This document shows positions 1-6,210 of a stretch of DNA of 6,210 nt, piece after piece; the first letter of the stretch is position 1; each line of letters starts with the position of its first letter. The notes under the pieces were generated by a model. The model did not search any database and was not told the origin of the DNA. It saw nothing but the letters and a program-made list of their open reading frames with translations. The stretch is from a virus. Lineage: Duplodnaviria > Heunggongvirae > Uroviricota > Caudoviricetes. Both the position numbers and the translations under genes were made by a program. The DNA is taken from the IMG/VR virus record IMGVR_UViG_2740892432_000002, positions 1 to 6,210 of that record. One strand, written 5' to 3'.

Positions 1-8
1 AGAGACCC

Positions 9-30
9 GGCGGGGGAGAAATCCCCCGCC
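9..30 (+). other. Stable GC-rich hairpin (GGCGGGGGA / GAAA loop / TCCCCCGCC), no U-tract on either strand
   Basis: Perfect 9-bp inverted repeat with a GNRA-type GAAA tetraloop read directly from the sequence. Flanks are not T-rich on either strand, so it is not a canonical intrinsic terminator. Confidence 0.5.
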
Positions 31-69
31 ACCTCTGATGTGTCAGGCATCCTCAACGCACCCGTACTT

Positions 70-93
70 ACCCGCTTCGGCGGGTTTTTTGTT
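70..93 (+). terminator. Rho-independent terminator (ACCCGC / TTCG loop / GCGGGT followed by TTTTTTGTTGT)
   Basis: GC stem with a UUCG-type tetraloop immediately followed by a T6 run. It lies upstream of the first ORF, consistent with the end of an upstream transcription unit (tR-like terminator in a nin-type region). Confidence 0.65.
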
Positions 94-246
94 GTGGTGG
101 AGAAATTAGCTTTTTGTGTACTCTTTTAGCAGTAAGTCTTGAGGGACTGACTGTTGTAAATAGAATCGTGTTTGCTTAGTTAGCGCGCAGGGAGAAGAGG
201 GATGGACCCTTCAGGGGAACGCTATTAATCTGGAAAATTTCTATTT

Positions 247-507
247 ATGGATTTCAAGAAGTTGCGCAAAATTTTTAATAAAGATGGTCTCTATGCTGTG
301 CGCGTTGAAAATGGGGAAATTATTAGTTGTTACTGCATTCATTGCTCACGGGCTTTGCAACAGCCTAGTGGGGCTATGTTAATATATCTCTTGAATGGGC
401 ATGTGACGGACGGATTTATGTTGCGTGAAGATGAATTTGTCACATCATTACGGACATTAAAAGAAATTGGATTAAAAGCTGGCTTTTCTGCTTTTGAAGA
501 CGATTGA
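247..507 (+). CDS. Hypothetical small protein (86 aa), AT-rich codon usage
   Basis: ATG-initiated ORF from the six-frame track. Its stop TGA (505-507) overlaps the TTG at 504 of the next ORF, suggesting operon packing. Only a weak SD-like GGAAAA lies upstream and I recognise no family. Confidence 0.45.
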   Translation: MDFKKLRKIFNKDGLYAVRVENGEIISCYCIHCSRALQQPSGAMLIYLLNGHVTDGFMLREDEFVTSLRTLKEIGLKAGFSAFEDD

Positions 508-584
508 ACTCATCTACAATTCAGCGCAGGGTTGACCCCCTGCTGAGTAACACCGTGCCACCGGAGAAAGCCGATGGCAAGCCG

Positions 585-1184
585 ATGGCACATATACAAC
601 TGATCAAACATACCTCTTCTGGATTACTGCTCCCGGCAACACCGGAGAGTTGCGAATTCTTGCATCAAATAAAAATAGGTGAGTGGATACACGCTGATTT
701 TAAGCGCGTTCGTAACTACGCATTTCACAAGCGTTTTTTCAAACTCCTGCAACTCGGATTCGATTATTGGACTCCTGTCGGTGGGGCGATCACCTCTCGT
801 GAACGAAAACTTGTGTCCGGTTTCGTTGATTATCTGTGTGACTCGGTCGGCCGGGAACATACGCCAGCCCTGAGTGATGCCGCAGAACAATATCTGAATA
901 CCATTGCGATACGCAGAACCTGTGATACGGCATTGCTAAAGTCATTTGATGCTTTCCGTGAATGGGTAACTATTGAGGCCGGATTTTACACCGAGCATTT
1001 TTATCCGGACGGTAGCCGTGGACGCAGGGCAAGATCTATCGCGTTTGCAAATATGGACGATACCGAGTTTCAGCAGGTTTATAAATCCGTACTGAATGTG
1101 CTGTGGAACTGGATCCTGTTCCGTAAATTTTCCTCTCCGGAGGAAGTCGAAAATGTGGCCGCACAGTTACTGGAGTTTGCGTAA
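585..1184 (+). CDS. Lambdoid nin-region protein, DUF1367-like (about 199 aa from ATG 585; the ORF is open from TTG 504)
   Basis: Long + strand ORF directly upstream of a YbcO-like gene and a Q-like gene, a gene order I recall from lambdoid prophages. First in-frame ATG is at 585; the GGAG at 562-565 is rather far from it, so the start is uncertain (alternatives TTG 504, GTG 555). Stop TAA 1182-1184 overlaps the next ATG by 1 nt. Confidence 0.7.
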   Translation: MAHIQLIKHTSSGLLLPATPESCEFLHQIKIGEWIHADFKRVRNYAFHKRFFKLLQLGFDYWTPVGGAITSRERKLVSGFVDYLCDSVGREHTPALSDAAEQYLNTIAIRRTCDTALLKSFDAFREWVTIEAGFYTEHFYPDGSRGRRARSIAFANMDDTEFQQVYKSVLNVLWNWILFRKFSSPEEVENVAAQLLEFA

Positions 1185-1474
1185 TGGTGGATTTACGTAA
1201 AGCGGCGCGGGGGCAGATGTGCACCGTCAGAATTCCTGGCTACTGCAATCACAATCCCGAAACATCTGTGCTGGCGCATTATAGGCTGGCGGGGACGTGC
1301 GGAACAGCGACAAAACCACACGATATGCAGGCAGCGATTGCCTGTAGCTCATGCCACGATTTAATCGACGGGCGGGTAAAAACCAGCGATTACACCAAAG
1401 AAGAATTACGCCTGATGCATGCAGAAGGTGTTTTTCGCACACAAGAAATCTGGAGAAAGGAAGGTTATTTATGA
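1184..1474 (+). CDS. YbcO-like (DUF1364) Cys-rich putative nuclease or zinc-binding protein, 96 aa
   Basis: 96-aa ORF containing several Cys plus a CSSCHD motif; size and position match the YbcO family found just upstream of Q in lambdoid prophages. Start ATG overlaps the upstream stop (TAATG) and its stop overlaps the Q start (ATGA), indicating translational coupling. Confidence 0.75.
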   Translation: MVDLRKAARGQMCTVRIPGYCNHNPETSVLAHYRLAGTCGTATKPHDMQAAIACSSCHDLIDGRVKTSDYTKEELRLMHAEGVFRTQEIWRKEGYL

Positions 1475-2013
1475 TTTACCCAACAAATACAGGCAAAAGC
1501 GGGGAACACCTTCGTCTCACCACGCTGGAAAGTGTCTGGATTCAGGGAAAACTGCGCATGTGGGGGCGCTGGTCGTATATTGGCGGCGGTAAGACGGGAA
1601 ATATGTTTAACCAGTTGCTGGCATCCAAAAAATTGACGAAAACAGCCGTCAATGAAGCCCTGCGCAGGATGAAAAAAGCGGGAATAGAGAAACCTGAGCT
1701 GGAAGCGTTTTTGCGAGAGATGATCAATGGCAAGCAAAAGACCTGGCTGGCGCATTGTACTGATGCAGAGGCGTTATGTATTGATAGAGTCATAAGTGAG
1801 GTGCTGGCAGAGCATCCTGGATTGATTAGTGTCCTCCGGCAACGGTATGAAGGACGGGGGATGACTAAGCGCAAAATGGCTGAATTGCTAAATGATGCAC
1901 ATCCTGAGTGGTGTTTTAGCACATGCGAAAAGCGAATTGCTAATTGGTTGGCTGTTGCTGAGTATGCCCTATATATTCCCATGCGAGAATCATTTGCTCA
2001 AAAAATAGCTTGA
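1471..2013 (+). CDS. Q-like late-gene antitermination protein (180 aa)
   Basis: Last gene before a terminator hairpin and the lysis cassette. Start ATG 1471 has an SD (GGAGAAAGGAAGG) 6 nt upstream and overlaps the upstream stop (ATGA). C-terminal half carries a four-Cys pattern (C-x7-C ... C-x3-C) compatible with the zinc-binding domain of Q proteins. The six-frame track's longer ORF from 1351 overlaps the upstream gene and is treated as a read-through artefact. Confidence 0.7.
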   Translation: MIYPTNTGKSGEHLRLTTLESVWIQGKLRMWGRWSYIGGGKTGNMFNQLLASKKLTKTAVNEALRRMKKAGIEKPELEAFLREMINGKQKTWLAHCTDAEALCIDRVISEVLAEHPGLISVLRQRYEGRGMTKRKMAELLNDAHPEWCFSTCEKRIANWLAVAEYALYIPMRESFAQKIA

Positions 2014-2096
2014 TTTTTTACGCATAAACTGCTTCAATTCCGGTATGCTTCGCAAAGCTGTATCGCGAGGCGAACCAAGCGCATGAACTTTACCAG
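2014..2096 (+). promoter_or_regulatory. Putative late promoter (PR'-like) and Q-utilisation region; exact -35/-10 not resolved
   Basis: Interval between the Q stop and the tR'-like hairpin, where lambdoid phages place PR' and qut. Only weak candidates were found (TTGATT at 2010-2015 with TTCAAT at 2033-2038). Call is by position, not a strong motif. Confidence 0.3.
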
Positions 2097-2125
2097 AACC
2101 CGCCATTGAGCGGGTTTTGTTGTTT
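2097..2125 (+). terminator. tR'-like rho-independent terminator (AACCCGC / CATTGA loop / GCGGGTT followed by TTGTTGTTT)
   Basis: 7-bp GC-rich stem followed by a T-rich tract about 85 nt downstream of the Q stop, the expected position of the terminator that Q-modified RNA polymerase reads through. Confidence 0.65.
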
Positions 2126-2197
2126 CTGGTACTGGCGAACCTGATGTTTCATTTCTGGAGCGCGATTCCTGGCGGAATACCTAGAATCGAGACATTC

Positions 2198-2206
2198 TGG
2201 TAAAAT
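2198..2206 (+). promoter_or_regulatory. Candidate extended -10 promoter (TGg-TAAAAT) for the moron gene
   Basis: TGn immediately upstream of a near-consensus -10 hexamer TAAAAT (2201-2206), about 28 nt before ATG 2235, which has a strong SD (GGAGGTGAG at 2226-2234). No good -35, as is typical of extended -10 promoters. Confidence 0.4.
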
Positions 2207-2234
2207 TGTTTTCAGTACAGGATGTGGAGGTGAG

Positions 2235-2804
2235 ATGAGAGAACTACCTAAAGATTATTTTTTAGGAGTAGATGATGAGCTCGTCGATTATCTTGAAAAA
2301 CAAGGGGAAGAGACGATACGAGAGATTCATCTTTCTAACAAAACCAATGTTGAGAATGGATACAAACTTCTGAACATTCAGATTGTTGGAATTGGTTCAT
2401 CTTTTTTATTGCTGACACAGAAAACTAATTTCGATTTTCTCACCGCCGGAATTACCACATTTACATTACTATGGACATGGTGCGCCATTTACTTGGTATG
2501 TACTGGTTTATCTGTGAAGGTTAGGGGCCTGATCAATGCCCCTCCTGATCATCTATATCATGAAAAATATAAGGATATGGAGCCCTCGAGCTTTAAAATA
2601 TTCGCTGATGCAGGATATTTAGGACCTGATAAGTTATTGCCGCTTATACGAAGGTATCGCCTTGTTGACTTGAGTGATACAGCAAGAGAGTTACTGTTGG
2701 AAAATGAGAAAATCCGCACGAGTCTCGATAAAGCAAGGATGTATACCATCCTTGCTCCGGTAGCGGCGATGTTTATCTCGGCTGTTTTTTTATATGTTCA
2801 ATGA
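2235..2804 (+). CDS. Hypothetical membrane protein, 189 aa, three predicted TM helices; moron between Q/tR' and holin
   Basis: ATG with a strong SD 4 nt upstream. Hydrophobic segments at roughly residues 46-63, 70-92 and 171-189 (C-terminal YTILAPVAAMFISAVFLYV). Acidic N-terminal segment of about 45 aa. Visibly more AT-rich than the flanking phage genes. I recognise no family. Confidence 0.65.
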   Translation: MRELPKDYFLGVDDELVDYLEKQGEETIREIHLSNKTNVENGYKLLNIQIVGIGSSFLLLTQKTNFDFLTAGITTFTLLWTWCAIYLVCTGLSVKVRGLINAPPDHLYHEKYKDMEPSSFKIFADAGYLGPDKLLPLIRRYRLVDLSDTARELLLENEKIRTSLDKARMYTILAPVAAMFISAVFLYVQ

Positions 2805-2934
2805 CTGAGTCGGCAGAATCTCCAACAAAAACACGACGTGTAGCAAAGTCTGTAGTACTTTGTGTTGGAGTTGGTTTTGGTGCCACGGGTTGCTGAGGTT
2901 TATTTTCACCTTGTGGTTTGTTTTTTTCAGACAT
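2773..2934 (-). CDS. Small hypothetical protein, 53 aa (MSEKNKPQGENKPQQPVAPKPTPTQSTTDFATRRVFVGDSADSVIEHIKKQPR), convergent with the moron gene
   Basis: ATG at 2934-2932 (- strand) with SD AGAGGA about 7 nt upstream. A plausible sigma70 -10 (TATATA/TATACT) lies upstream on the - strand near 2990-2998. The six-frame ORF (2773-3165) extends further 5' but the first SD-preceded ATG gives 53 aa. Pro/Gln-rich low-complexity N-terminus; overlaps the 3' end of the 189-aa gene by about 30 nt. Could be spurious. Confidence 0.3.
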   Translation of the reverse strand: MSEKNKPQGENKPQQPVAPKPTPTQSTTDFATRRVFVGDSADSVIEHIKKQPR

Positions 2935-3028
2935 AAAAATCCTCTTTGTTTGAATTGTTACTTTTGGCGATTTAACGATATCAAACACGAGTATATACCG
3001 CCAGAAGCTTAATCTGGCACTCCATCTG

Positions 3029-3056
3029 GCCCCGGCATGTCCCGGGGCTTTTTCGT
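3029..3056 (+). terminator. Rho-independent terminator (GCCCCGG / CATGTC loop / CCGGGGC followed by TTTTTCGTTGTT)
   Basis: Perfect 7-bp GC stem followed by a T5 run on the + strand, about 95 nt upstream of the holin start. It is oriented to stop + strand transcription from the moron promoter before the lysis genes. The - strand flank is not T-rich, so it is unidirectional. Confidence 0.65.
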
Positions 3057-3151
3057 TGTTAGGCTCCGGAAAGATCCTCGACTTCTTGTTAGCAAGCCTG
3101 AGAGCCTGAATCTTACACTTAGCACCATCCGAACTCTCGGAGGTGAGGCTT

Positions 3152-3493
3152 ATGAAAATGCACAATGCCCCTCATTCCTGGCCTGACTTACTGGAACTCT
3201 TACAAAGTTGGTGGCGTGGAGATACGCCGCTGGGTGCAGTGGTTATGTCAATTATTATGGCTGGTTTGCGCATTGCCTATTTTGGCGGTGGCGGCGGCTG
3301 GAAACGAAAAACGCTTGAGATTCTGCTTTGTGGTGCTCTGACGCTGACCTTTGCATCCGCGCTTGAGTATGTCGGATGGCCTAAATCACTTTCTGTTGCC
3401 ATTGGTGGTGGGGTGGGGCTGATTGGTGTTGATGCTATTCGTGGTGCGGCAATGAGGGTCATCGGTAACAAGTTCGGTGCCCATAAGGAGTAA
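3152..3493 (+). CDS. Holin (three predicted TM helices, MKM dual-start motif); not lambda S-like in sequence
   Basis: Sits immediately upstream of the endolysin (stop TAA 3491-3493, R ATG 3497). SD GGAGG at 3139-3143 is 8 nt before ATG 3152, and a second Met follows at codon 3 (M-K-M), as in the lambda S107/S105 holin/antiholin arrangement. An in-frame GTG at 3143 would give MRLMKM. Three hydrophobic helices and a charged C-terminus (RGAAMRVIGNKFGAHKE). Confidence 0.8.
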   Translation: MKMHNAPHSWPDLLELLQSWWRGDTPLGAVVMSIIMAGLRIAYFGGGGGWKRKTLEILLCGALTLTFASALEYVGWPKSLSVAIGGGVGLIGVDAIRGAAMRVIGNKFGAHKE

Positions 3494-3496
3494 TTA

Positions 3497-3973
3497 ATGC
3501 AGACACTTAATTCCCAGCGTAAAGCTTTCCTTGATATGGTGGCATGGTCAGAAGGAACAGATAACGGACGGCAGAAAACCAGAAATCACGGTTATGATGT
3601 TATTGTCGGTGGCGAACTGTTCACTGATTACTCCGATCACCCCCGCAAACTTGTCACGCTAAATCCGAAACTCAAATCAACAGCCGCTGGACGTTACCAG
3701 CTTCTTTCACGCTGGTGGGATGCCTACCGCAAGCAACTTGGCCTGAAAGATTTTTCTCCAGAAAGTCAGGATGCTGTAGCGCTGCAGCAGATTAAAGAGC
3801 GTGGCGCTTTGCCGATGATTGATCGCGGTGATATCCGTCAGGCTATCGACCGTTGCAGCAATATATGGGCTTCACTGCCGGGCGCTGGTTATGGTCAGTT
3901 CGAGCATAAGGCTGACAGTCTGATTGCAAAATTCAAAGAAGCTGGCGGAACGGTCAGAGAGATTGAGGTATGA
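3497..3973 (+). CDS. R: Endolysin, lambda R-type lytic transglycosylase (158 aa)
   Basis: Translation is near-identical over most of its length to lambda R as I recall it ([55 protein letters not shown]...REI.V); only the first ~6 residues differ. Perfect SD AAGGAG 6 nt upstream. Stop overlaps the Rz start (ATGA at 3970-3973). Confidence 0.95.
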
Positions 3974-4434
3974 GCAGAGTAACCGCGATTATCTCCGCTC
4001 TGGTTATCTGCATCGTCGTCTGCCTGTCATGGGGTGTTAATCATTACCGTGATAACGCCATCGCCTACAAAGAACAGCGCGACAAAAATGCCAGAGAACT
4101 GAAGCTGGCGAACGCGGCAATTACTGACATGCAGATGCGTCAGCGTGATGTTGCTGCGCTCGATGCAAAATACACGAAGGAGTTAGCTGATGCGAAAGCT
4201 GAAAATGATGTTCTGCGTGATGATGTTGCCGCTGGTCGTCGTCGGTTGCACATCAAAGCAGTCTGTCAGTCAGTGCGTGAAGCCACCACCGCCTCCGGCG
4301 TGGATAATGCAGCCTCCCCCCGACTGGCAGACACCGCTGAACGGGATTATTTCACCCTCCGGGAACGACTGGTAATGATGCAGGCCCAACTTGAAGGTGC
4401 TCAGCAATACATAACCGAGCAGTGTTTAAAGTAA
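3970..4434 (+). CDS. Rz: Rz i-spanin (inner-membrane spanin subunit), 154 aa
   Basis: N-terminal TM helix ([16 protein letters not shown]) followed by a charged, coiled-coil-like periplasmic domain. Near-identical to lambda Rz from memory. Position after R and the embedded Rz1 confirm the call. Confidence 0.95.
4190..4375 (+). CDS. Rz1: Rz1 o-spanin lipoprotein (61 aa), fully embedded in the +1 frame of Rz
   Basis: Signal peptide with lipobox (LVVVGC), then a Pro-rich mature region ([18 protein letters not shown]). Matches lambda Rz1 and the Rac RzoR as I recall them. Classic embedded-gene architecture. Confidence 0.9.
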
Positions 4435-4514
4435 AATCTTAACTACAATATGATTCATTTTGATGATTGTTTCATAAGGAACAGTGAAGTAAGATCTAAG
4501 AGGAGTTAAATTTT

Positions 4515-4554
4515 ATACAGTATAATCATAATATTGCAGCAAGGTGGTTATAAT
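4515..4554 (+). promoter_or_regulatory. AT-rich putative promoter region for trkG (two consensus TATAAT hexamers at 4521-4526 and 4549-4554)
   Basis: Two perfect -10 hexamers in the very AT-rich intergenic region between Rz and trkG. No convincing -35 was found. Call is by motif only. Confidence 0.3.
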
Positions 4555-4571
4555 TGAAAGAATATTTAGAT

Positions 4572-6029
4572 ATGAATACATCTCATGTAAGAGTTGTTAC
4601 TCATATGTGTGGGTTCCTGGTTTGGCTCTATAGTCTTTCAATGTTGCCACCAATGGTTGTAGCATTGTTTTATAAAGAAAAAAGCCTGTTCGTTTTCTTA
4701 ATAACTTTCGTTATATTTTTTTGCATTGGTGGCGGAGCGTGGTATACAACTAAGAAATCTGGCATTCAATTACGTACCCGTGATGGGTTTATTATAATTG
4801 TAATGTTTTGGATTTTGTTTTCTGTTATTAGTGCATTCCCTTTATGGATTGACTCAGAACTTAATTTAACGTTCATTGATGCTCTGTTTGAAGGGGTTTC
4901 TGGAATAACAACAACAGGAGCAACTGTAATTGATGATGTTAGTTCATTACCTCGGGCATATTTGTACTATCGGTCACAGTTAAATTTTATAGGTGGTTTA
5001 GGAGTTATTGTTCTGGCGGTTGCTGTATTGCCATTATTGGGTATTGGTGGTGCAAAGCTTTATCAGTCAGAAATGCCGGGGCCATTTAAGGATGACAAAC
5101 TCACTCCCCGCCTGGCCGATACGTCACGGACACTGTGGATAACTTATTCTTTATTAGGTATTGCTTGTATTGTCTGTTATAGACTTGCAGGAATGCCTTT
5201 GTTTGATGCTATTTGTCACGGGATTTCCACAGTTTCGCTTGGTGGTTTCTCAACTCATAGCGAGAGTATCGGATATTTTAATAACTATTTGGTTGAGCTG
5301 GTGGCTGGTTCTTTTTCCCTGCTATCGGCTTTCAACTTCACTCTTTGGTATATTGTTATTAGCAGGAAAACGATAAAACCTTTAATCAGAGATATTGAAC
5401 TTCGTTTCTTTCTGTTAATAGCCTTAGGGGTGATCATTGTTACCTCTTTCCAGGTCTGGCATATAGGTATGTATGACTTGCATGGAAGTTTTATTCATTC
5501 GTTTTTTCTTGCCAGCTCCATGCTCACTGATAATGGTTTAGCTACGCAGGATTATGCAAGTTGGCCCACGCACACGATAGTGTTTTTGCTGTTGTCAAGT
5601 TTCTTTGGGGGATGTATAGGTTCAACTTGTGGTGGAATTAAGTCACTTCGATTTCTTATACTTTTCAAACAAAGCAAACACGAGATAAATCAGCTTTCTC
5701 ATCCCAGAGCGTTGTTGAGTGTAAATGTAGGAGGGAAGATAGTTACAGATCGTGTAATGAGGTCTGTATGGAGTTTCTTTTTTCTTTATACTCTCTTCAC
5801 GGTGTTTTTTATACTGGTGTTAAATGGTATGGGATATGATTTTCTTACATCATTTGCAACAGTGGCTGCATGTATTAATAATATGGGATTAGGTTTTGGG
5901 GCTACTGCATCGTCATTCGGAGTGCTTAATGACATTGCAAAATGTTTAATGTGCATAGCTATGATTCTTGGTCGCCTTGAAATTTATCCTGTTATTATAT
6001 TGTTTTCAGGTTTTTTTTGGCGCTCCTAA
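4572..6029 (+). CDS. trkG: TrkG/TrkH-family potassium uptake membrane protein (485 aa from ATG 4572)
   Basis: Long polytopic membrane protein with repeated Gly-rich selectivity-filter-like motifs (GITTTGATV, GGFSTH, GLATQDY, NNMGLGFG). N-terminus MNTSHVRVVTHM matches Rac-prophage TrkG as I recall it. Markedly AT-rich compared with the adjacent lysis genes. An in-frame TTG at 4554 has a better-placed SD (AAGGTGG at 4541-4547), so the true start may be 6 codons upstream. Confidence 0.93.
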   Translation: MNTSHVRVVTHMCGFLVWLYSLSMLPPMVVALFYKEKSLFVFLITFVIFFCIGGGAWYTTKKSGIQLRTRDGFIIIVMFWILFSVISAFPLWIDSELNLTFIDALFEGVSGITTTGATVIDDVSSLPRAYLYYRSQLNFIGGLGVIVLAVAVLPLLGIGGAKLYQSEMPGPFKDDKLTPRLADTSRTLWITYSLLGIACIVCYRLAGMPLFDAICHGISTVSLGGFSTHSESIGYFNNYLVELVAGSFSLLSAFNFTLWYIVISRKTIKPLIRDIELRFFLLIALGVIIVTSFQVWHIGMYDLHGSFIHSFFLASSMLTDNGLATQDYASWPTHTIVFLLLSSFFGGCIGSTCGGIKSLRFLILFKQSKHEINQLSHPRALLSVNVGGKIVTDRVMRSVWSFFFLYTLFTVFFILVLNGMGYDFLTSFATVAACINNMGLGFGATASSFGVLNDIAKCLMCIAMILGRLEIYPVIILFSGFFWRS

Positions 6030-6063
6030 TATATGGCTGATTTATAATTGTGAGTTTAATATT

Positions 6064-6204
6064 ATGTTGACTCACTCATTGATCCAATACCTAACTTTAC
6101 CAGCAACACCTCCGTCCCCAGTAGCACTGGCTGCTGGGGTGCGTTTTATTCATAAAGCAAGGCTGTATGAGCGAGAAATTAAAGATGATCTTACCCAGCA
6201 ATAG
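6064..6204 (+). CDS. Small hypothetical ORF (46 aa) downstream of trkG; uncertain
   Basis: ATG 6064 in frame with track ORF 5968-6204; the upstream part overlaps trkG and is rejected. Only a weak SD. Alternatively, an ATG at 6185 (MILPSNSG...) in another frame may start a gene that runs off the window end (possibly the Rac ynaK homologue; not verifiable here). Confidence 0.2.
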   Translation: MLTHSLIQYLTLPATPPSPVALAAGVRFIHKARLYEREIKDDLTQQ

Positions 6205-6210
6205 TGGACA

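Follow-up and report, generated by a model that had tools for sequence, protein, structure and literature searches.

The lysis region of the 6,210-nt stretch of viral DNA analysed here (the window; positions 1 to 6,210 of IMG/VR record IMGVR_UViG_2740892432_000002) raises the question of how its holin gene came to stand in front of endolysin and spanin genes that closely resemble those of phage lambda. A sequence-only reading of the window had proposed that a non-lambda holin was joined to a lambda-type R-Rz-Rz1 block by recombination at the start of R, and that the holin gene carried three possible initiation codons. In the reading favored here, to which we assign a probability of roughly 0.88, positions 3139-4434 comprise a complete, canonical holin-endolysin-spanin cassette of a Rac-type lambdoid Escherichia coli prophage, in which a holin of the lambda S family acts like lambda S, and which is mosaic with respect to lambda. 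The cassette is canonical and had been annotated before, and its mosaic border is neither novel nor specific to this prophage. It is a textbook case of modules swapped among lambdoid phages, in which a gene overlap defines the breakpoint; it has little import beyond correct annotation and does not challenge current understanding.

The first gene of the cassette, S, lies downstream of a Q-like gene and directly before the endolysin gene, ending 3 nt ahead of the R start. Its long form, a protein of 113 aa that starts M-K-M, is encoded at 3152..3493 on the plus strand. The claim that this holin bears no resemblance to lambda S did not withstand comparison with curated family models. Specifically, S matched Pfam family PF05106 (Phage_holin_3_1, lysis protein S) across profile positions 2-99 of 99 with an E-value of 2e-27 and 95.9 bits, where the curated cut-off is 23.8 bits and lambda S itself scores 105 bits, and it matched the NCBIfam equivalog model TIGR01594 ('phage holin, lambda family') across positions 1-107 of 107 with 139.3 bits against a curated cut-off of 55.05 bits. 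The score thresholds of both families, and with them that for membership in the lambda S family, were passed, and S was also placed in PHROG 126 (holin/anti-holin). Pairwise BLASTP aligned residues 1-111 of S with residues 1-102 of lambda S at 25% identity over 111 residues (E-value of 3e-6), and a global alignment of the two proteins yielded 27% identity.

Closer relatives were readily found. The long form was 100% identical to the 'holin/antiholin component S' of three induced phages (vB_EcoS-666R9, -673R7 and -473R12), 87-89% identical to S of SfV, SfII, SfIV and mEp460, 80% identical to its counterpart in Salmonella phage SW-37, and 54-56% identical to those of Yersinia YeP1 and ST64B. Judged by these profile and pairwise matches, the holin is a divergent but bona fide lambda-S-family protein, probably of class I, and belongs to the SfV/SfII/mEp460 subtype. 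Such an assignment was already known, in that S had been annotated as a lambda-family holin by NCBI PGAP and in GenBank, and the RefSeq protein WP_000781775.1 bears the name 'phage holin, lambda family'. In the literature we found nothing on a Rac prophage holin accompanied by trkG, nor on accession ON470614.

The Kyte-Doolittle hydropathy profile of S displayed three hydrophobic segments (at about residues 23-46, 53-74 and 77-104), and the charge pattern, in which loop 1 carries KRK and the C-terminus is basic, was positive-inside like that of lambda S. This profile is consistent with a predicted topology in which the protein crosses the membrane three times, its N-terminus facing outward and its C-terminus the cytoplasm. 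Ahead of the first transmembrane domain (TMD1), S has about 15 residues more than lambda S, and the topological switch of TMD1 may therefore differ from that of lambda S. A G5W motif between the first two transmembrane segments had been pointed out, and the stretch YFGGGGGWKRK is indeed present; as a special feature, however, the motif was rejected, since the five-glycine loop aligns with the NGGAF loop between TMD1 and TMD2 of lambda S and is variable in length, its equivalent in close relatives being GGGW (Yersinia) or GSSW (ST64B). A pinholin/SAR-endolysin system of the phage 21 type was rejected as well, given the three hydrophobic segments and the PF05106 match of S and the polar N-terminus of R, which is of the soluble lambda type.

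The endolysin gene R (3497-3973, plus strand) is preceded by a ribosome-binding site AAGGAG at 3484-3489, within the last codons of S, and encodes a lambda-type lytic transglycosylase of 158 aa. As the sequence-only reading had stated, R, Rz and Rz1 are near-identical to their lambda counterparts. In R, 150/158 residues (94.9%) are identical to lambda R. That only the first six or so residues of R differ from lambda was half correct, in that four of the eight differences fall at residues 2, 3, 4 and 6, but the others lie at residues 15, 63, 89 and 157. The segment AWSEGTDNG, whose Glu we take to be the catalytic residue of R, is the same as in lambda R. Against the structures of lambda lysozyme, R matched PDB entry 1AM7 with an E-value of 5.6e-102 (1AM7 and 3D3D together spanning 1e-100 to 1e-102), and it was placed in PHROG 90 (endolysin). 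No match to R was obtained in Pfam or NCBIfam, and a Pfam model is missing for lambda R too; because the PDB and PHROG matches are decisive, this reflects a gap in the libraries rather than counter-evidence.

The two remaining genes of the cassette form a two-component embedded spanin. Rz (3970-4434, plus strand; PF03245 with an E-value of 4e-53) encodes the inner-membrane subunit of 154 aa, 141/153 residues (92.2%) of which are identical to lambda Rz, and Rz1 (4190-4375, plus strand; PF06085 with an E-value of 2e-19) lies entirely inside Rz in the +1 frame and encodes the outer-membrane lipoprotein subunit of 61 aa, identical to lambda Rz1 at 55/60 residues (91.7%) and retaining the lipobox VVGC and a further Cys. 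The C-termini of Rz and Rz1 are the parts in mutual contact in the spanin complex. Both are altered by a break in identity to lambda at 4359/4360, through which the last 25 or so codons of Rz diverge from lambda and Rz1 ends in SPSGNDW versus SPSERG.

Similarity to lambda extended over window positions 3515-4424 with BLASTN and 3515-4359 with megablast. Nucleotide identity was 43% in S (3211-3493) and 38% in the S/R junction on the plus strand (3494-3514; the TTA spacer and R codons 1-6), and then rose to 90.1% in R (3515-3969), 96.8% in Rz (3970-4189) and 98.8% in Rz/Rz1 (4190-4359), before dropping to 60% at 4360-4434. The step from about 40% to 90% at 3515 is a sharp breakpoint, far beyond chance. 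A recombination junction at the holin/endolysin border had been proposed, and where R begins there is indeed a break with respect to lambda, which can be placed precisely at 3515, but it is not a fresh junction.

This breakpoint corresponds to lambda position 45511, which is R codon 7 and the first codon beyond the 17-nt S/R overlap of lambda (where S spans 45186-45509 and R starts at 45493). R codons 1-6 lie inside this lambda overlap, so that the N-terminus of R travels with the holin: it reads MVEINN next to lambda S and MQ(T/V)LNS next to an SfV-type S, and the junction sequence goes with the S module when set against lambda. The window shares with lambda the gene order S-R-Rz-Rz1, the S family, the M-K-M start, the three hydrophobic segments and basic C-terminus of S, and Rz1 in the +1 frame. 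It differs from lambda in the 25-27% identity of S, in the longer N-terminal segment and five-glycine loop of S, and in its gene spacing, with no S/R overlap in the window (TAA-TTA-ATG). The lambda-type block at 3515-4359 is itself not uniform, with 90.1% identity in R versus 96.8-98.8% in Rz/Rz1, a difference that suggests separate exchange histories for R and Rz/Rz1.

Whether the border is particular to this prophage can be judged from its relatives. Against SfV, SfII, mEp460 and 683R1, a single continuous alignment ran across S and R, with nucleotide identities of 88-92% in S (3211-3493), 81-90% in the junction (3494-3514) and 84-90% in R. The group of SfV, SfII, SfIV and mEp460, together with the induced phages 666R9, 673R7 and 473R12, shares with the window the S-R order, the non-overlapping spacing, the R N-terminus MQ(T/V)LNS and a lambda-type R. 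In SfV, SfII and 683R1 a break in identity occurs at the R/Rz border instead, and their Rz/Rz1 genes are unrelated to those of the window. With a probe of 691 nt centred on the S/R border, the S-R unit was found contiguous in 1203 of the 5426 complete E. coli genomes (22%). Roughly 1300 further genomes had matches to less than 80% of the probe; among the matches listed, those to R only began at 3496 or at 3515-3518. From the even divergence of the same S-R unit in the SfV-group phages and its presence in 22% of E. coli genomes it follows that the pairing is old and widespread.

Partners have been exchanged on both sides of the border. Elsewhere, an SfV-type S precedes a GH108 enzyme (Klebsiella), a GH24 lysozyme (Rouxiella), a GH19 enzyme (YeP1 and ST64B), a CHAP-domain enzyme (BS0013) or an unassigned 136-aa protein (Raoultella). 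The ten related loci surveyed for this purpose demonstrate the diversity of endolysin partners and are too few for statistics. In a prophage of O157:H7 strain 86-24, a lambda-type R with the N-terminus MQNLNP follows a LydA-type holin (PF16083, 101 aa) with a 14-nt overlap, which makes the LydA type a third holin partner for lambda-type R. Going by these arrangements, exchange has occurred repeatedly at the holin/endolysin border, in line with expectation for lambdoid phages, and the mosaic nature of these genomes has also been described (PMC8136144).

Two other accounts of the border have to be weighed against this one. The first proposal, that a holin unrelated to lambda S recently recombined onto lambda R-Rz-Rz1 in this very prophage and thereby created a novel junction, draws on the sharp fall in lambda identity from 90% to about 40% at 3515 and on the mere 25-27% identity of S to lambda S. 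It is nevertheless very improbable, as the two curated models (PF05106 and TIGR01594) place the holin in the lambda S family, and the same arrangement, present in 22% of complete E. coli genomes, recurs in SfV, SfII, SfIV, mEp460 and 683R1 with even divergence over the boundary. That S and R are inherited together, with even divergence, in a known phage group is what the sequence-only reading had itself named as a refutation of its mosaic proposal. Conversely, one could suppose that no recombination took place and that S simply evolved much faster than R within a single vertically inherited cassette. S and lambda S are indeed homologous, and holins generally diverge more than endolysins. However, a rise in identity from 38% to 90% over only a few bases, precisely at the edge of the gene overlap, is hard to reconcile with a difference in rate, and so are the LydA-type holin in front of a lambda-type R in O157:H7 and the GH108, GH24, GH19, CHAP and other endolysins behind an SfV-type S in other genera; the additional breaks at R/Rz (with SfV, SfII and 683R1) and at 4359/4360 (with lambda) further mark the region as a patchwork, and we regard this explanation, too, as highly unlikely. 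In the favored reading of an old lambda-family S-R unit, the S module including R codons 1-6 would derive from a different S lineage than that of lambda, the breakpoint would lie exactly where the lambda S frame ceases to overlap R, and the two further changes in identity, from R (90%) to Rz (97-99%) and at 4359/4360, would stem from additional exchanges.

The start region of S was the second feature to which attention had been drawn. Positions 3139-3160 read GGAGGTGAGGCTT ATG AAA ATG, in which the Shine-Dalgarno region GGAGGTGAGG (3139..3148, plus strand) serves both ATG 3152 and ATG 3158 and includes GTG 3143, and in which ATG AAA ATG occupies 3152-3160. GTG 3143, ATG 3152 and ATG 3158 are all in frame with no stop between them. 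In GenBank ON470614 and RefSeq WP_000781775.1, S is annotated as beginning at ATG 3152. The GAGGTG sequence is kept 5' of S in SfV, SfII, mEp460, SW-37, 683R1, YeP1 and the Klebsiella and Raoultella loci. In YeP1 its GTG stands in another frame, and in SfII an in-frame stop comes between it and the start, from which we conclude that GAGGTG is conserved as a ribosome-binding site and not as a codon. GTG 3143 was rejected as an initiator on these grounds, and its location inside the Shine-Dalgarno region leaves two plausible starts in an M-K-M arrangement, as for S107 and S105 of lambda. In lambda, S105 is the holin and S107, with its Met1-Lys2 extension, the antiholin, and their ratio is set by the sdi structure (PMC3359269). 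The 113-aa long form of the window would be the antiholin and counterpart of S107, and the 111-aa short form from Met3 (3158..3493, plus strand) the presumed active holin and counterpart of S105.

An M-K-M or M-R-M start was present in the window and in 683R1, SW-37, ST64B, YeP1 (MRM) and the Klebsiella, Raoultella, Yersinia and BS0013 loci, and hence in relatives from Salmonella, Yersinia, Klebsiella, Raoultella and one unclassified bacterium, and the S start of Rouxiella reads M-T-M, which is without a positive charge. A single Met was found at the S start of SfV, mEp460 and SfII, and the SfIV genome paper reports SfI, SfII, SfIV and SfV to be without the dual-start motif (PMC3851460). As SfII, SfIV and SfV have a single start, an antiholin isoform appears to be dispensable in this holin subtype.

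Upstream of the start codons, a hairpin of 5 bp (UCCGA-ACUC-UCGGA; 3128..3141, plus strand) has a 3' arm that runs into the ribosome-binding site, making it a possible counterpart of the sdi stem-loop of lambda. In a hairpin search with shuffled controls on 14 homologous start regions, its folding energy of -5.7 kcal/mol was equalled by 83/500 shuffles, versus 0/500 for the strong lambda hairpin, 14/500 for ST64B and 21/500 for YeP1. Folding of the RNA from 3105-3215 likewise gave a z-score of -0.27, no better than shuffles. The hairpin at 3128-3141 is indistinguishable from chance and is not claimed as sdi-like, and the window differs from lambda in having no significant counterpart of that hairpin.

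These observations bear on how many products S yields. Use of GTG 3143 in addition to the two ATG codons would give a third isoform of 116 aa, beginning MRLMKM and carrying two extra positive charges. In support of such a triple-start holin, the codon is in frame without an intervening stop in the window, and its equivalent is in frame in SfV, mEp460 and 683R1 as well. However, with the GTG inside GGAGGTGAGG and GGAG abutting it, no ribosome-binding site stands at a workable distance; moreover, the GTG of GAGGTG is out of frame in YeP1 and followed by an in-frame stop in SfII, and all annotations start at ATG 3152. We give this possibility very little weight, and the three initiators of the sequence-only reading reduce to the canonical two. 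The opposite simplification, that either ATG 3152 or ATG 3158 is the only functional start, that no antiholin is made, and that the holin alone sets the timing of lysis, as it presumably does in SfII, SfIV and SfV, is a more serious contender, since near relatives work with one Met and the window contains no significant sdi-like structure. It is still unlikely, given that M-K/R-M persists in Salmonella, Yersinia, Klebsiella and Raoultella, where protein identity is 54-80%, and that it is the same as the experimentally defined lambda motif. The M-K-M dual-start logic recognised by the sequence-only reading is borne out by the ATG AAA ATG at 3152-3160 behind GGAGGTGAGG, and we infer that the two-start logic of S is plausibly functional, with both codons used.

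According to this two-start reading, the cassette would be expressed in the late operon downstream of the Q-like antiterminator, and the single S gene would give rise to two products, most likely in the manner of lambda S. The Met3 form (111 aa) would build up in the inner membrane and trigger hole formation, and the Met1 form (113 aa), with the one extra positive charge of Lys2, would act as antiholin and delay triggering. The holes would let out the soluble lambda-type transglycosylase R, after which Rz and Rz1 would disrupt the outer membrane.

The 5' end of S has a distribution of its own. Over the first 60 or so nucleotides of S (3152-3210, about 20 codons), identity was 62-66% to SfV, SfII and mEp460 and 98% to 683R1, whereas the remainder of S was 88-92% identical to all four. 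SfII, SfIV and SfV have a single Met, unlike the M-K-M of the window, and their first 20 or so codons represent a different allele. The M-K-M 5' end was found in 385 of the 5426 E. coli genomes, versus the 1203 with the S-R unit. This might tentatively indicate that the first 20 or so codons, which take in the start region along with the N-terminal tail on the periplasmic side, are a separately exchangeable allele that exists in dual-start and single-start forms; we consider this conceivable but doubtful. If the alleles truly differ in antiholin production, they would offer a natural pair for probing the role of the antiholin in lysis timing and fitness. That one holin subtype occurs naturally in dual-start and single-start forms is the only lead from this locus, and a mildly useful one.

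Further upstream, a terminator-like GC-rich hairpin with a T run lies at 3028..3057 on the plus strand, about 95-100 nt before S. Its hairpin (3028-3049) has an 8-bp stem with 7 GC pairs and is followed by TTTTCGTTGT, and a terminator is annotated at the corresponding position of SfV. A second terminator-like hairpin on the plus strand was seen at 2094-2119, about 80 nt after the Q-like gene (1471-2013; DUF1133/Phage_antitermQ match). Both hairpins are candidate terminators overridden by Q antitermination, and the one at 3028-3057 is presumably read through by Q-modified RNA polymerase. Between Q and S sits a low-GC insert (37-41%) that carries a 189-aa ORF of low GC content on the plus strand (2235-2804; PHROG 11870, function unknown) and a convergent, slightly overlapping ORF of about 71 aa on the minus strand (about 2773-2988; PHROG 14506, function unknown; annotated by PGAP). 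Neither of these two ORFs had a match in Pfam or NCBIfam.

The prophage itself could be placed through its closest matches. The entire window aligned at 99.7% identity with the chromosome of E. coli RM9513. In that prophage, kilR, sieB, ydaT and ydaV lie to one side of the matching stretch, and ydaY and the genes for terminase, head and tail to the other; this kilR...ydaY context makes it a Rac-type prophage. The cassette with its flanks (2900-4500) was 99.7-99.8% identical to four induced phages, including vB_EcoS-666R9. The cryptic Rac prophage of E. coli K-12 (ydaW-rzpR-rzoR-trkG; MG1655 1418000-1426000 was compared) was 99.8% identical over window positions 3990-6186, spanning rzpR, rzoR, trkG and the start of ynaK, whereas everything to the left of 3990 is gone: Q and the 189-aa ORF, S and R, and also the initial 20 nt of Rz. 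Since K-12 Rac matches only from 3990 onward, these genes and the beginning of Rz have been lost in K-12. The window is the undeleted, ancestral-type arrangement of the K-12 Rac lysis region and shows K-12 Rac as it was before loss of the Q-S-R segment. The K-12 match starts inside the annotated 'ydaW' CDS, so that the 3' portion of ydaW comes from Rz.

Some minor observations were made along the way. An SfII-type S (87%) and a lambda-type R (97%) were found together on DATGTY010000133.1, a 3.6-kb contig in a metagenome-assembled genome labelled Chitinophagaceae, which is most likely a misbinned enterobacterial prophage fragment. Within the late operon of the window, between the lysis cassette and the ParB-like/terminase genes, lies trkG (4554-6029; 32-41% GC), a low-GC cargo gene for a TrkH-family K+ transporter that occupies the same place in K-12 Rac. 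Finally, the last 24 bases of the window (6187-6210) differ from the E. coli matches listed and from K-12, all of which stop at 6186.
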